Source: Waddliaceae bacterium
GTDB lineage: Bacteria; Chlamydiota; Chlamydiia; Chlamydiales; JABHNK01
Assembly (NCBI GenBank): GCA_018694295.1
Contig: JABHNK010000010.1
Span: 688-64,687, forward strand
DNA length: 64,000 nucleotides
Reading direction: 5' to 3'
The notes beneath the pieces were generated by a model that was not told where the DNA came from, ran no database searches, and saw nothing but the letters and a program-made list of their open reading frames with translations. Made by a program: the position numbers and the translations under genes. This document shows positions 14,874 to 52,626 of this stretch, piece by piece; position 1 is the stretch's first letter, and each line of letters begins with the position of its first letter.

Positions 14874-14887
14874 TAAATATAAAATAT

Positions 14888-14972
14888 GCCGATGTGGCGA
14901 AATGGTAGACGCGGTAGATTCAAAATCTACTTCTGCTTGCGCAGAGTGCTGGTTCGAGTCCGGTCATCGGCA
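14888..14972 (+). tRNA. tRNA-Leu (anticodon CAA)
   Basis: GCCGATG...CATCGGC acceptor stem, a D-arm GGCGAAATGGTAGACGC very close to E. coli tRNA-Leu, anticodon loop ttCAAaa, a long variable arm and a TTCGAGT T-loop. CCA is not encoded. Confidence 0.92.
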
Positions 14973-14987
14973 AAACATATGCTTGAT

Positions 14988-15407
14988 ATGAACATTACTA
15001 ACGATACAAAATGCCCTTGCAGCAGTGGAGAAAACTACAGCAACTGCTGCGAGTCTTTCCATAAGGGCGCTCTACCTTCTAGTGCTGTACAGCTTATGCG
15101 CTCAAGGTATAGCGCGTATGCCTATGATCTCCCCGAATATATCATCGAAACAACACACCCTCTAAATCCAGGGTATCGCCACGAACAGGTCGCGTGGAAA
15201 AAAGAAATATCGTTATTCTCACGAGCCTCTTCTTTCAAAAAGCTCGAGATTCTCGACTCACAAGAGAAAGACGACACAGCAACGGTAACGTTTGTCGCCC
15301 ATATATCACAAAACGGCGGCGATGCCTCCTTCACAGAAAAAAGCCTTTTCAAGAAAATCGATGGGAAATGGCTATATCACAGTGGGCAAGCGGTGGGAAT
15401 TGCCTGA
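14988..15407 (+). CDS. YchJ family protein (SEC-C motif plus NTF2-like domain)
   Basis: CPCSSGENYSNCC is the SEC-C motif, followed by LMRSRYSAYAY. The track ORF start at 14886 overlaps the tRNA, so the start was trimmed to the Met at 14988 (14979 is also possible). Confidence 0.85.
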   Translation: MNITNDTKCPCSSGENYSNCCESFHKGALPSSAVQLMRSRYSAYAYDLPEYIIETTHPLNPGYRHEQVAWKKEISLFSRASSFKKLEILDSQEKDDTATVTFVAHISQNGGDASFTEKSLFKKIDGKWLYHSGQAVGIA

Positions 15408-15419
15408 GTGTTTTCATTG

Positions 15420-16043
15420 TTATAACATTCTTTTTTTTATTTCATTAATAGCATTAATCCGCTTTTGATAAATAAGGACTCCACTATTTATCTTGAGAAG
15501 GTATAAAGCAACCGAAGGAAATAAGATGATCATTTCTAAACGTTTTACAATGTTTTTTCCAGATGTTTTATTAGTTTCAAAAGCATTTAATGACGCTTGA
15601 GAAAACTCAAATACCTGTGCAAATTCACGCGTTGTTAGATTAAGAGAATTCCTAAAATCTATCAAATTTTGCGAAGAAATTCCTCTCTCGAAAAGAGGAG
15701 CAAACACGAAAGAAGAAGGTCCCTTCCTTCCTATTGTACACAGAAGTATGATAGGATCGCTTTCACTCGTATCAATGCCCATGCTAAGACAGTATTCTGG
15801 ATATGCCGGATTTTGACGCGAAGGAATTCTATCATTAAATGAAGGAAAAAGTGTTGTAGAGATAAACTCTCTTTTGGTTAAAGGAAATTCTGGTCCTAAA
15901 GAAAGAGCGTTGCGAGATGTGAAATATTGATCGTCGTATATGAAAACAAAACTTCCTTGTTCTTTTTTCAATACGCCTACGTGGGTATGTGTTTTCGTTT
16001 TTCTTAAAAAAACATTAACACCAATAATTTTTAAGTTATACAT
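15420..16043 (-). CDS. HipA N-terminal (HipS-like) domain fused to a C-terminal Xre-type HTH; putative antitoxin/regulator
   Basis: VGVLKKEQGSFVFIYDDQYF...LSLGPEFPL...LFPSFNDRIPSRQ...LLCTIGRKGPSSFVF resembles Couple_hipA. The C-terminus (LTTREFAQVFEFSQASLNAFETNK) resembles an HTH_3 fold. An AAGGAG RBS is present, and the gene overlaps the kinase gene by 13 nt. Confidence 0.75.
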   Translation of the reverse strand: MYNLKIIGVNVFLRKTKTHTHVGVLKKEQGSFVFIYDDQYFTSRNALSLGPEFPLTKREFISTTLFPSFNDRIPSRQNPAYPEYCLSMGIDTSESDPIILLCTIGRKGPSSFVFAPLFERGISSQNLIDFRNSLNLTTREFAQVFEFSQASLNAFETNKTSGKNIVKRLEMIILFPSVALYLLKINSGVLIYQKRINAINEIKKRML

Positions 16044-16936
16044 ATTTCCGAACTCCTTTTATCAATGAGTGCAATTAAAGCTTGTTTTCTTTTATCGCTC
16101 AAATAGCTTAAATGAATTATGTCACAAAGCTGAGGGAGAGATAGGTTTTTTTGAAAATTCTCAATAACATTTTGATACCCAAGACGCTCCCATTCAAGGA
16201 CATAGTCCTTCATAAGCGGCTCTTTAGAGTCTTTCGTGTAAATGCAACCTCGAGGTTGAAGATCCGCTCCTAACATTGCTACATCTTCTATTCCCAAAGC
16301 TGACGGATTATCATAGAAAGGCGCTATCGTTGATTTATTTGCAGATTGAATAAATCCTAAATTTCGACCATGGCGATCGTTATTCCCAATTAAACTGTCT
16401 GCTAAAGTAAGATACACAAAGCTTTCTTGGTCAATTCTTCTGCCTGTTTGCTCTCCGATTACATTCACGAGTGTTTCACAATCGAAAATCATGTCGTTTT
16501 CTATATAATGATAAATATGCACCAACGTTGAAGGTGGTGAATTAGGCATAAAGTTTTTCGTTATAAAGCAAAATTCAGATTCAGGAAAGCGAACGAGATA
16601 GTAAGGCGGAATATTTATTTTTAGAGCCTCGTATAATTGATTACACACAAATTCTGTAAGAGGTAGCTCGGGAAATTCTTTTTGCCGTGTTTTCAGAATA
16701 TAGCTAACGCCTCCAAGGCGGGAAGAATACTTACGAAATTTACCATGAAAAAAACTTGAATTGATGTTTCGTTTTTCTCCCTGTGCGGGGGCCTCTGATT
16801 GGTATCGAATAGCAACATCAGAAAAAAACTCCAGCTTATTCAAGCTGAATATGCGAATAAAACATTCTTCATGCATTCCATAATGTGCTTTATCACCATT
16901 AATTGGCTTTGAACATGCTAGACAGGTATAGTCCAT
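16031..16936 (-). CDS. HipA-family Ser/Thr kinase core with an N-terminal CxxC...H..C zinc-ribbon-like motif; putative toxin
   Basis: The catalytic motif GNNDRHGRNLGF matches HipA/HipT GNxDxHxKN. FFHGKFRKYS sits at the P-loop position. The N-terminus reads CLACSKPINGDKAHYGMHEEC. Confidence 0.8.
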   Translation of the reverse strand: MDYTCLACSKPINGDKAHYGMHEECFIRIFSLNKLEFFSDVAIRYQSEAPAQGEKRNINSSFFHGKFRKYSSRLGGVSYILKTRQKEFPELPLTEFVCNQLYEALKINIPPYYLVRFPESEFCFITKNFMPNSPPSTLVHIYHYIENDMIFDCETLVNVIGEQTGRRIDQESFVYLTLADSLIGNNDRHGRNLGFIQSANKSTIAPFYDNPSALGIEDVAMLGADLQPRGCIYTKDSKEPLMKDYVLEWERLGYQNVIENFQKNLSLPQLCDIIHLSYLSDKRKQALIALIDKRSSEICIT

Positions 16937-16965
16937 CTATTTTCCTTTTTCTTTTATTATAACAT

Positions 16966-17037
16966 TGACATGAATTTGTGTCAACTTAGATATGACATGA
17001 ATTTGTGTCACTTTAAAAGTGACATGAATTTGTGTCA
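16966..17037. promoter_or_regulatory. Three phased operator-like repeats, TGACATGAATTTGTGTCA
   Basis: Identical 18-mers start at 16966, 16993 and 17020, an exact 27-bp period. Each is a TGACA-N8-TGTCA palindrome. They lie 30-100 bp upstream of the kinase ATG. Confidence 0.8.
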
Positions 17038-17074
17038 ATCAGCCCTTGTTTGTTCAAAAAAGTCAGTGGGCGGT

Positions 17075-17098
17075 CTAGGCAGTGTGGCAATCATGGGT
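17075..17098 (+). mobile_element. Solo right-end remnant of MITE family A
   Basis: ctaggcagtgtggcaatcatgggt resembles the A2 right end (cttaggcaaagtataggtcgcaatcatgggt) and is followed by TAT. It abuts the NUDIX stop codon. Confidence 0.45.
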
Positions 17099-17583
17099 TA
17101 TAGTGGACAAGTCACCGGAATGACGTGATCAAAGATATGATCTAGGACCATTTTGACGTTGAAGAGCAAGTTTTCGCCGACGGTGAGGGCTTCGATATCG
17201 TCGCGAGAAAACCAGCGCATCTCTCTGACTTCGTCATAGTTAGGTTTTTCTATTCCAGTGCGGATGTTTTTGGCGAGATACACCATATCGATATGTTGGT
17301 GTGCGGGAGTGTCTCGATATTCCGGAATATCTTCTATGAGACAAAGATATGGTCTTTGGAAGCTGCGGGCTTCGTCGCTCTGCACCCACGCATTTTCCTG
17401 CATCATGATCTCAATTTCAAGGCCCGTCTCTTCGAAAACCTCACGGCGCGCAGAATCGACAGGCGTCTCATTAGCATCGATATGCCCTCCAGGAGGAAGC
17501 CATGTACTCAGCTTTTTATGGTATATAAGGAGAACCTTATCATCATCTACGATAAAAACATTAGAGGTGAAATGTCTTTCCAT
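17098..17583 (-). CDS. NUDIX hydrolase
   Basis: Nudix box: GGHIDANETPVDSARREVFEETGL. Confidence 0.9.
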   Translation of the reverse strand: MERHFTSNVFIVDDDKVLLIYHKKLSTWLPPGGHIDANETPVDSARREVFEETGLEIEIMMQENAWVQSDEARSFQRPYLCLIEDIPEYRDTPAHQHIDMVYLAKNIRTGIEKPNYDEVREMRWFSRDDIEALTVGENLLFNVKMVLDHIFDHVIPVTCPL

Positions 17584-50460: not shown

Positions 50461-52626
50461 TTACTCCTCAAAAATATTCTTTACTGATACTATATTATAT
50501 ATCTCATCTTTGAAACGAAAAGTTTCTCCCTCTTTATTCCCAATCATTTCTTCTGCGAACCTAGAACGATATGAAAGAACTCCTTTGTCAGGATCTGCTT
50601 CCCACGGCCCCAAGATAGTATACGTTATTTTTTTTCCTTGAGAGTCCTCAAGGTCTACCTTAGTGCCTATATCAATACGATCACTAGCAACATCATCGGC
50701 AGTAAGGACCCTTGCCTTGTTGAGCTGCTGCGTCAATGTCTTGAGTTCCCCCTGCAGACGCCTTCTTTTTTCAAGGGCAAACTTATATTCTGCGTTTTCT
50801 CTAAGGTCGCCAAGAGCCCGTGCTGCTTCTATTTCTCGAGCATTAGACACTGTCTCGACAGTAGCGATGTGTTCTATGCGTTTCTGCATGGCATTGAATC
50901 CTTCCTGTGTCGCCCACATGACATCATCGACTTCATCATTACCAGAACCCTCTTTTTTAATGTCGGGGTTTGCAACTTCCGCTAAAGAGCGTAGAATTTT
51001 GATGTCGTGCTCACTGAAAGAACGACACTTTGTCACAAGAAGTAAGATCTCGTGAAGATATTCGATATCAGCGCCTGCGAGAGCCTCACGGACGACGATA
51101 TAACGTTTTGCTGTAATAATAGAATACATCTTTTTTACAAGATCTTTGTATTCCTGACCTTTTTCAGCTTCGTTGAGTACCATCAAAAACCTTTCAAAGA
51201 ATTTTTTCTGCAAATCTTCATCGTCGAAAAGACGGTCTTCTTTATTTATAACCTTCTGAAAATACCATACGAATGCCCGTGGGTTTTCGATAGAATGGTC
51301 CAAAAGAGTCATTATCTTTTCTCGCAACGCCGTAATGTCTTCTTCAGCAGCGAGCTCACCAAAGGCATAGTCCTTAAGAGCGCTCTGCTTAAAAGAAAAA
51401 AGAATGTCGAGGAATCTTTCTTTCCAGTCATCACAATTTTTTCTGATGATGACAAGGATGCGTTTCTTCAAAGCAGAAACTTCTATGTCTTGTATAACAG
51501 AAGCTACGTCTTTGATGCCGACGACAGAATCGACAAGTTCGTTGTCGCGTTTTTCATCACGGAAAAATTCCTTGAGAAGAAGTCTTGCTTGGAGCTCTGC
51601 AACAATGTCTGCTTTGTCATCACTGACAATCTCTTCGAGGGCTTTCTCAATAACTTGTGACGTTTTTTCGTCTTTAAGAACCTCGGGGAAATCTCTCATG
51701 AAATTATAGCAAATAGCAATGAGTTCCTTGTTATTTTTTGCCTTGGCGACACTCTCTTTACAACGCTCTTCATGTAGAAGTTCTGTGCTTCGGATTTTAA
51801 AACAACCGCGGACACTCTTTGGCGTCTCGATCATCGTATCTTTTTTTATCTTAGAGCGAGCTACCTGCCACCACTTCGTCCAGTCGCCCGCGGGGATGAC
51901 AAGCTCGTAAAGCTCTTCTTTGATATCGACAGCAGTCTTAGGCCCTAAATCACTAAGAAGCATGCGTATAACCTTCGAAGGGTCTTTGCGTGCCTCCTCT
52001 TCTAGGTCGTCAGGAAAGCCAAAGCGCTGTGAAAGGAAGTGTTCCTTCGGTATTGGGATAAGACTCTTAAACGCCGTCTTAAAAGCAACGTCTTTGCGGC
52101 CGACAACATTCTCAAACTCAATAGTGAACTGCTCGCGCATCAATGAAAGCTCTATAACTTCCCCTACTCCCCACCCTCCAGTATGATAAACGAACTTGTT
52201 CTCGTCCATATGAGTGAGAAGCTCGTAGTTAGAAAGGGAGCTCTGAAAGTCTTTCTTATGCCTGAGGCCTATAAGTCGTATCTTCTCGTTAAAATATTTG
52301 TGGTCACCATAGCGCTTTTTCAAGATATTATAAGCTAGAGCAGCAAGTGCCGCGGTGTTCGTCGTTTCAATATCAAAGATAAGTTTAGCGATATCATAAG
52401 AAATCGCCTCGTCGCTTATCGTCTCCCATAAAGGCACTATAAGCTCAACATCGCTACCAAAGGGCTTTGCAAGAGATGACTCTTTTATTGCTTGTAAAAT
52501 GCTTTTAAGTTCTTCGCCCTCAATAATATCACATATGCAATACTCTTCCCACAAACCCCTCAATTCCTTGATATCGTTATCTTCGATATGACGAAGGAAT
52601 TCTTTCAAATAGCTCATATTCAACAT
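50461..52626 (-). CDS. greA: GreA-family transcript cleavage factor with a ~560-aa N-terminal extension
   Basis: The C-terminal ~150 aa form a GreA domain (GDLRENAEYKFALEKRRRLQGEL...TYTILGPWEADP). The rest is a helical extension. Confidence 0.88.
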   Translation of the reverse strand: MLNMSYLKEFLRHIEDNDIKELRGLWEEYCICDIIEGEELKSILQAIKESSLAKPFGSDVELIVPLWETISDEAISYDIAKLIFDIETTNTAALAALAYNILKKRYGDHKYFNEKIRLIGLRHKKDFQSSLSNYELLTHMDENKFVYHTGGWGVGEVIELSLMREQFTIEFENVVGRKDVAFKTAFKSLIPIPKEHFLSQRFGFPDDLEEEARKDPSKVIRMLLSDLGPKTAVDIKEELYELVIPAGDWTKWWQVARSKIKKDTMIETPKSVRGCFKIRSTELLHEERCKESVAKAKNNKELIAICYNFMRDFPEVLKDEKTSQVIEKALEEIVSDDKADIVAELQARLLLKEFFRDEKRDNELVDSVVGIKDVASVIQDIEVSALKKRILVIIRKNCDDWKERFLDILFSFKQSALKDYAFGELAAEEDITALREKIMTLLDHSIENPRAFVWYFQKVINKEDRLFDDEDLQKKFFERFLMVLNEAEKGQEYKDLVKKMYSIITAKRYIVVREALAGADIEYLHEILLLVTKCRSFSEHDIKILRSLAEVANPDIKKEGSGNDEVDDVMWATQEGFNAMQKRIEHIATVETVSNAREIEAARALGDLRENAEYKFALEKRRRLQGELKTLTQQLNKARVLTADDVASDRIDIGTKVDLEDSQGKKITYTILGPWEADPDKGVLSYRSRFAEEMIGNKEGETFRFKDEIYNIVSVKNIFEE

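Follow-up and report, generated by a model that had tools for sequence, protein, structure and literature searches.

We analysed a 64,000-nucleotide stretch of DNA from a Waddliaceae bacterium (contig JABHNK010000010.1, positions 688 to 64,687 of the forward strand; hereafter the window), which harbors on its minus strand a two-gene module related to the Hip kinases. With a probability of roughly 0.75, we read this module as a bicistronic, self-repressing type II toxin-antitoxin (TA)-like or abortive-infection-like system that performs the functions of HipBST with two proteins. Gene 1 (16031..16936, minus strand; 301 aa, ATG start) encodes a HipT-type Ser/Thr kinase, the presumed toxin, and gene 2 (15420..16043, minus strand; 207 aa, ATG start) encodes a HipS domain fused to a domain of the helix-turn-helix (HTH) type, presumed to act as both antitoxin and autorepressor. 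This kinase-first combination is a rearrangement of known parts that is common in environmental chlamydiae and apparently undescribed, in the sense that we found no description of it.

Both open reading frames (ORFs) and their 13-nt overlap had been proposed in an earlier note on the sequence of this DNA, and our reading of the ORFs agrees with it. The same is true for the AAGGAG ribosome binding site that it assigned to gene 2, which lies within the 3' end of the kinase gene (16053..16058, minus strand) with a 9-nt spacer to the ATG at 16043, and for the peptide motifs it cited (GNNDRHGRNLGF, FFHGKFRKYS, CLACS...HEEC and LFPSFNDRIPSRQ), all of which were located in the translations.

The kinase and the HipS-HTH partner protein

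Gene 1 matched the Pfam family HipA_C (PF07804) with an E-value of 1.7e-15 and 57.7 bits, above the gathering cut-off of 30.5. When a profile built from 26 kinase homologues was compared with the proteins of the PDB, the closest solved protein was HipT from Legionella pneumophila (HipT(Lp), E 5e-16), followed by CtkA from Helicobacter pylori, HipA and the Escherichia coli HipT (HipT(Ec)). The AlphaFold model of the kinase (predicted local distance difference test score, pLDDT, 76.5; predicted template-modelling score, pTM, 0.80) gave a similar picture in Foldseek, with matches to CtkA (E 3.5e-10), HipT(Lp) and HipT(Ec) (E 1e-9 to 4e-8) and HipA (around 1e-6), and hhalign aligned the kinase family end to end with HipT from Parabacteroides (probability 98%, 284 aligned columns). 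No Couple_hipA domain was found in the 301-aa kinase, which therefore lacks the HipA N-subdomain 1 and is of the HipT type. The description of gene 1 as a HipA-type kinase core without the HipA N-terminal subdomain is thus in agreement with the Pfam score, the HipT homology and the fold.

At the level of sequence, the four core motifs of Hip kinases are all intact and can be aligned with those of HipT(Lp). The Gly-rich (P-loop) position is occupied by SFFHGKFRKYS (residues 61-71; 16724..16756, minus strand), of which S61, G65, K69 and S71 are invariant in the 26 homologues; confidence in the model is low at residues 56-65, which fits a mobile loop. The ATP-binding lysine K82 is invariant in the same set, and so are the catalytic loop GNNDRHGRN (D187, H189 and N192) and the Mg-binding D209 within APFYDN, which together span residues 184-209 (16310..16387, minus strand). 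This catalytic region aligns with GNEDMHLKN...PAYD of HipT(Lp). Among the full-length kinases, 47 of 53 contain DRHGRN and two more the variants DFHGRN and DRHSRN, the pattern DRHxxN being the classic loop of PI3/4-type kinases. Since all catalytic and ATP-binding residues are invariant, nothing points to a dead enzyme.

The first 30 residues of the kinase (16847..16936, minus strand) form a zinc-finger-like minidomain of the type CxxC...HxxC, whose residues C5, C8, H22 and C25 are invariant in the 26 aligned homologues; of 53 full-length kinases of other genomes, also outside Chlamydiota, 51 have the motif. In the model this region consists of short hairpins followed by a helix that starts at residue 23 (pLDDT 81-90), and the layout so predicted is that of a treble-clef zinc finger, so we infer that the minidomain binds zinc. 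The HipT of a canonical HTH-HipS-HipT operon in Parabacteroides distasonis (NZ_OY725757.1, L078:2458-3933) starts with MCNCLYCYRPLLKGEKDMHTACIKKFFG, and hhalign places its four Cys/His residues opposite C5, C8, H22 and C25. The alignment implies that the CxxC...HxxC region corresponds to the N-terminal minidomain described for HipT (PMC10627512), here in a putative zinc-binding form that seems to be widespread. No discussion of zinc in this minidomain was found in the Hip papers that we searched for the word. The motif had been recognised in the earlier note, which took it as replacing the HipA N-subdomain; the motif stands, but it is the HipT minidomain, which Bacteroidota HipT has as well, and no substitute for that subdomain.

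Gene 2 matched Couple_hipA (PF13657) with an E-value of 1.4e-8 (35.5 bits against a gathering cut-off of 22.5), and its AlphaFold model reached a pLDDT of 87.7. Together with Foldseek and hhalign, this match assigns residues 1-118 (15690..16043, minus strand) to the fold of HipS and of the HipA N-subdomain 1. Foldseek superposed these residues on the solved HipS structures 7vkb_B, 7ab3_B and 8ezr_A with template-modelling (TM) scores of 0.76-0.80 and root-mean-square deviations of 2.6-3.0 Å, and they superpose on the HipA N-subdomain as well; hhalign related them to the canonical HipS from Parabacteroides with a probability of 91.5%. The resemblance to HipS and to the HipA N-subdomain, previously proposed from the sequence, is therefore also present in the structural comparison. 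HipT is neutralised by HipS inserting into its active-site region, with Trp65 of E. coli HipS as the wedge that blocks the kinase (PMC10627512). hhalign places S75-R76-Q77 of gene 2 opposite the Glu-Gly-Trp of HipS, and at this wedge position the gene 2 family carries a conserved block, DRIPSxQNPAYxEYC, in which most positions are invariant. In gene 2 no HIRAN domain was matched at E<=1, nor was any other additional domain.

The C-terminal part of gene 2 (residues 124-206; 15426..15674, minus strand) is modelled as a five-helix Xre-type HTH (residues 124-189) with an extra C-terminal helix (residues 192-206). Foldseek matched it to the C-domain of HigA2 (TM 0.77), 434 Cro (0.64) and HipB(Lp) (0.62); homologues of gene 2 pass the Pfam HTH_3 model, and for the gene 2 protein of the window NCBIfam returned only a weak match of MqsA type (E 1e-3). 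No specific similarity to HipB of the Parabacteroides hipBST operon was found by hhalign (probability 0.8%), and descent of the HTH from that HipB is not supported. The HTH was probably recruited separately, as far as the profile comparison can tell, so that the fusion of S and B parts holds as a functional analogy, with descent not shown. Of the earlier assignment to an Xre/HipB-type HTH, membership of the Xre superfamily is retained by fold, and the specific link to HipB of hipBST is not. Likewise, the proposal that the three HipBST functions are packed into two genes stands for the HipT kinase and the HipS-HTH fusion, while its 'B' part is a functional analogy only.

The module has much in common with HipBST as known from E. 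coli O127, L. pneumophila (Lpg2368-70) and Bacteroidota: a full-length HipT-homologous kinase without the HipA N-subdomain 1, a CxxC...HxxC minidomain shared with the Bacteroidota HipT, a HipS-fold domain that provides the missing subdomain, an HTH that provides DNA binding, and overlapping genes. The differences lie in how these parts are arranged and in their details. Two genes in the order T-(S.HTH) are found here against three in the order B-S-T; HipS, a stand-alone protein of about 100 aa in HipBST, is here the N-terminal domain of a 207-aa protein and joined to an HTH; and whereas HipBST has a separate upstream hipB, no HTH ORF lies upstream of the kinase in the window. Besides its HTH, which has no specific relationship to HipB of hipBST, the module differs in the conserved SxQNPAY block, found where HipS has the Trp wedge, and in the loop DRHGRN, found where HipT has D-x-H-x-K-N.

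Kinase-first modules have been catalogued as hipIN (14 modules) and hipJS (2 modules) (Gerdes et al., 2021). In hipIN, which combines the HipI kinase with HipN (a HipS-like domain plus HIRAN), a short core kinase likewise comes first and the second gene starts with a HipS-like domain and adds a DNA-binding domain. By the published description, this domain is a C-terminal HIRAN, whereas gene 2 ends in an Xre HTH, and the HTH and palindromic operators described below imply promoter autoregulation here, not DNA-end sensing. In hipJS the HipJ kinase also precedes a HipS, but this HipS is described as stand-alone and without a DNA-binding domain, unlike the HTH-bearing protein of our module (Gerdes et al., 2021). 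The HipS-HTH fusion is not described in that survey of Hip systems, and in the accessible literature we found no description of such a fusion or of a chlamydial Hip module; a survey of TA systems in Waddlia and other Chlamydiales lists no Hip module and reports that TA systems were not identified in Chlamydiaceae. Sequence databases carry automatic names for the gene 2 family, such as 'HipA N-terminal domain-containing protein'.

Promoter, operators and proposed mechanism

A sigma-70-type promoter (16956..16984, minus strand) sits 20 nt upstream of the kinase ATG. It combines TTGACA (16984-16979), a 17-nt spacer and TGnTATAAT (-10 hexamer at 16961-16956), matching the consensus at 12 of 12 positions and carrying the extended -10 TG. 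Over the promoter and upstream of it lie three identical palindromes of the form TGACA-N8-TGTCA, exactly 27 bp apart, each corresponding to the 18-bp sequence TGACACAAATTCATGTCA as read on the minus strand. The proximal one (O1, 16966..16983) contributes its left half-site to the -35 hexamer, and it is followed by O2 (16993..17010) and the distal O3 (17020..17037). Copies of the palindrome are confined to the module promoter within the 64 kb window, where 0.06 would be expected by chance. A 52-aa ORF over this array (16970-17128, plus strand), in which the peptide MNLCQ/MNLCH recurs, is an artefact that arises from translating the three operator repeats; the same artefact has been called as a gene in one public assembly (L074:4916-5074).

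The array is conserved in homologous loci. Upstream of the kinase, 17 of 54 loci have perfect 5-N8-5 palindrome pairs exactly 27 bp apart (shuffle mean 0.025), a number that rises to 42 of 54 when one mismatch is allowed (shuffle mean 2.8, maximum 9), and the proximal palindrome lies 46-53 nt before the kinase ATG. Across loci the two half-sites change jointly, appearing as TGACA/TGTCA, TGACG/CGTCA, TGACT/AGTCA, TGATA/TATCA and TGATG/CATCA, so the palindromes look as the operator of a dimeric repressor should and are predicted to be bound as such. When residues of the recognition helix were compared with the operator half-sites, Asn150 accompanied TGACG in 6 of 10 loci and TGACA in no case, the six proteins concerned being close relatives. 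The operators of E. coli HipB have the consensus TATCCN8GGATA and thus the same 5-N8-5 geometry (PMC3376134). As in E. coli hipBA, several palindromes of this geometry overlap the promoter; the module differs in its TGACA half-site, in the three sites at a fixed 27-bp period and in having its DNA-binding domain on the HipS-carrying protein. With regard to the adjacent, co-transcribed genes and autoregulated promoter that characterise type II TA systems, we found overlapping genes, a consensus promoter and a conserved operator array to which the HTH is expected to bind.

On the reading that we favour, gene 2 is translationally coupled to gene 1, and the HipT-type kinase would stop growth through phosphorylation of an essential component of the cell. 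Its target may belong to the translation apparatus, as the analogy with HipA, which acts on GltX, and HipT, which acts on TrpS, suggests. The HipS domain would dock where HipA carries its N-subdomain 1 and block the Gly-rich loop of the kinase, with the DRIPSxQNPAYxEYC block standing in for the Glu-Gly-Trp wedge of E. coli HipS. The HTH is predicted to dimerise and to bind the three 18-bp palindromes; since one of them covers the -35 box, the complex would repress its own very strong promoter. Two kinase:HipS-HTH units joined via the HTH dimer would mirror the heterohexamer of HipBST, and the kinase would be released once the HipS-HTH protein is lost or sequestered. The module may serve addiction, abortive infection or the response to stress.

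Distribution, decay and long relatives

In a scan of species-representative genomes the module was found at 73 loci. Close homologues of gene 2 comprise more than 345 protein clusters (58-66% identity, 203-229 aa with the exception of one 337-aa outlier) and those of the kinase more than 448, and most of their named sources are Chlamydiota. The chlamydial carriers include Parachlamydiales, Rhabdochlamydiaceae and Anoxychlamydiales, and one kinase cluster is labelled Simkania negevensis. At 40-48% identity the module also occurs in Coxiellaceae, Caedimonas and other Alphaproteobacteria, Aegiribacteria/Fermentibacteria, Bdellovibrio-like bacteria, Omnitrophota, Elusimicrobia and Sumerlaeota. No evidence for the module was found in true Chlamydiaceae. 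A metagenome-assembled genome (MAG) labelled 'Chlamydia trachomatis' (L013, CAMAUB010000005.1) carries it at 60% identity, and this label is probably a taxonomic mis-assignment.

The kinase-first order anticipated for the module is kept in about 60 genomes; at most loci outside the window the kinase gene is immediately upstream of gene 2, and an overlap of 4 nt is usual. Two copies are present in each of two MAGs, MGR_bin328 (L012 and L043) and RIFCSPHIGHO2_12_FULL_27_8 (L037 and L049). At two non-chlamydial loci (L063:2000-2893 and L072:9973-10890) a second and very divergent kinase homologue, with 23% identity along its full length, is encoded at a distance of a few kb from the module.

Context was sufficient at 64 loci, of which 45 retain both genes intact, whereas in 15 the kinase is disrupted or missing and the HipS-HTH protein is intact. 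The reverse, an intact kinase with a lost HipS-HTH gene, was seen in none of the 64, barring two loci where the contig ends inside gene 2. Such kinase-only decay is the asymmetry classically seen with a toxin and its antidote. A tblastn search with six flanking proteins of the window against the 73 loci gave three weak, non-adjacent matches only, and thus no synteny. The G+C content at third codon positions (GC3) is 0.30 for gene 1 and 0.25 for gene 2, against 0.39-0.52 for their neighbours, in a window with an overall GC content of 44%. No relatives of gene 2 were found in the viral contigs of IMG/VR or in the plasmids of PLSDB, where the kinase matched distant HipT/HipA genes only. Overall, the module looks horizontally acquired and dispensable, and the link to persistence in chlamydiae raised in the earlier note is pure speculation.

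We also searched 1.84 billion representative proteins with gene 2 and examined the best 150 matches, of which 44 are at least 300 aa long (up to 1,707 aa), with the HipS-HTH unit N-terminal in all but one. In one class, with 12 representatives, this unit is followed by a common homologous C-terminal extension that gives weak AAA_16/NB-ARC signals; in P0290 and P0305, the two proteins scanned against PADLOC, the extension matches PD-lambda-4_A (E 8e-47 and 8e-52, respectively). PD-lambda-4 is Avs8, a STAND sensor of phage capsid protein. Homologues of 1,400-1,700 aa with an N-terminal HipS-HTH are represented by P0290, P0305, P0294, P0287 and P0274 and by the loci L077:3064-9049 and L080:4001-8896. 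In L077 a 317-aa zinc-finger kinase overlaps the start of the Avs8-like gene, which adjoins a KilA-N protein and an nSTAND3/DUF559 helicase, and in L080 the kinase is reduced to a remnant beside it. Another class, with 11 representatives of 483-648 aa, joins HipS-HTH to a C-terminal domain of 300-400 aa without a Pfam or PADLOC match. Proteins of this 480-650-aa form (P0243, P0251 and P0262) occur in Alphaproteobacteria, in genomes of the endosymbiont Caedimonas and in metagenomic contigs, with the kinase directly upstream (L062:4434-6152, L064:5977-7464 and L079:297-3015). Finally, in P0246 (379 aa) the HipS-HTH unit is followed by a HEPN domain (Pfam E 1e-4).

Gene 2 of the window ends after the HTH, without an NTPase or sensor, and represents the minimal form; the likeness to PD-lambda-4/Avs8 applies to the long relatives and not to it. 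These relatives suggest a tie between the wider family and antiviral defence. Tentatively, and with less than even confidence, we propose that HipS-HTH is a portable adaptor linking a zinc-finger HipT-type kinase to interchangeable sensors, namely an Avs8-like STAND NTPase, HEPN or the uncharacterised 300-400-aa domain. If so, these proteins would constitute a family, not described before, of immune or TA systems with a kinase as effector, whose toxin is controlled in trans by an NLR-like receptor via an antitoxin domain, and the form found in the window would be its minimal member and the most widespread TA-like module in environmental Chlamydiota.

Competing explanations and genomic context

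Several observations weigh against reading the module as a self-repressing TA-like system. The Trp65 wedge of E. coli HipS is absent from gene 2, which has Gln77 in the aligned position, and where HipA and HipT have a Lys in the catalytic loop, the kinase has an invariant Arg191 that may affect activity. For gene 2 of the window itself no Pfam HTH match was obtained, the scores being below thresholds. The contact between the HipS domain and the kinase is proposed from homology, and the toxicity of the kinase and its neutralisation are likewise presumed. Long-read assembly errors may account for some of the kinase disruptions, and for an element that is purely selfish, about 55-65% pairwise identity over many lineages of chlamydiae is high. 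The genes around the module are housekeeping genes (rpsL/rpsG/fusA, truA, ispD, NUDIX and YchJ-like), not a defence island.

This fairly uniform identity over many chlamydial families, together with the stable occurrence of the module with identical flanks in many metagenomic samples of the species, would suit a vertically inherited signalling kinase and transcription factor serving chlamydial physiology or development, with no TA function. We consider such a regulatory pair improbable, given the lack of synteny between genomes, the strongly deviant GC3, operator copies that occur in the window only at the module's own promoter, the loss of the kinase alone in 15 of 64 loci and the presence of the genes in unrelated phyla. 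It is even less probable that the kinase is secreted and acts as an effector on the eukaryotic host, with gene 2 as its chaperone or regulator. The top Foldseek matches do include the secreted kinase CtkA of H. pylori, Lpg2370, the closest relative of solved structure, has been annotated as an effector of the Dot/Icm system, and the family is enriched in protist-dwelling bacteria (Chlamydiota, Coxiellaceae and Caedimonas). Nevertheless, translocation of HipT(Lp) was not found in careful assays (PMC10653801), the tight operon with a HipS inhibitor and autorepressor suits a cytoplasmic toxin, the kinase gene is decayed in many genomes, and Omnitrophota, Elusimicrobia, Aegiribacteria and Bdellovibrio-like lineages have members of the family too. 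A further explanation, that a single HipL-like gene fusing kinase and HipS has been broken by a sequencing frameshift, draws on the existence of single-chain kinase-HipS-HIRAN proteins (HipL; PMC8262856). It is effectively refuted by the stop/start overlap of two intact ORFs, in the same order, in 45 other, independent genomes, by the AAGGAG site that belongs to gene 2 itself and by the identical arrangement in many independent assemblies of the Waddliaceae species.

The TA-like reading differs only in biological role from the possibility that anti-phage abortive infection, and not addiction or persistence, is the main function of the module, with infection depleting or sequestering the HipS-HTH protein and thereby releasing the kinase. 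To our knowledge, few chlamydial phages are known, which counts against this role. In its favour, both proteins significantly match PDC-M03, a candidate defence system in PADLOC: the kinase matches its model A (9e-14, residues 94-217) and gene 2 its HipS-like model B (2e-13, residues 15-114), although the 245-262-long profiles are covered only in part and the B profile has no match in gene 2 for its C-terminal part. Relatives fuse HipS-HTH to the PD-lambda-4_A/Avs8-like STAND protein, with the zinc-finger kinase directly upstream in L077, another relative bears the HEPN domain, and a role in phage defence has been validated for a kinase system of the HipA family (PMC13092281). On the other hand, the version in the window lacks a sensor domain, its neighbours are housekeeping genes, and the viral contigs and plasmids yielded no relatives. 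We therefore regard defence as a possible but doubtful main role for this particular module.

The two-protein system proposed here bears on several questions. Hip kinases are the founding model of toxin-mediated persistence and are now being linked to phage defence. If our reading is correct, the logic of HipBST can be compressed into two genes by fusing HipS to an unrelated Xre HTH, a layout absent from the reference survey of Hip systems. The module also offers predictions: a defined 18-bp operator, a zinc-binding minidomain shared with the HipT of Bacteroidota and an inhibitory block replacing the Trp wedge. TA systems are considered rare in Chlamydiota and a Hip module is unreported there, so that the present one adds a common candidate, and the Avs8-like STAND fusions suggest how NLR-like sensors could control a kinase toxin in trans.

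The flanks of the module are identical across many metagenomic assemblies of the Waddliaceae species. A 13-nt near-repeat (TTGTTATAACATT at 15417-15429 and TTATTATAACATT at 16954-16966) brackets it from the stop codon of gene 2 to the -10 box; this may be chance in AT-rich DNA, and nothing else resembling att repeats was found around the module. The sole tRNA gene of the window, tRNA-Leu(CAA) (14887-14973, plus strand), is some 450 bp away from the 3' end of the module, around which no duplicated tRNA-Leu 3' end was seen. The ORF 14886..15407 overlaps this tRNA gene, so the true start of the YchJ-like gene must be further downstream. Elsewhere in the window (50461-52626, minus strand) a GreA fusion of about 720 aa matched NCBIfam NF004969 with 847 bits against a cut-off of 697, and other assemblies of the Waddliaceae species have a gene for a SWIB-domain protein a few kb away from the module; both support a Chlamydiota origin of the window.

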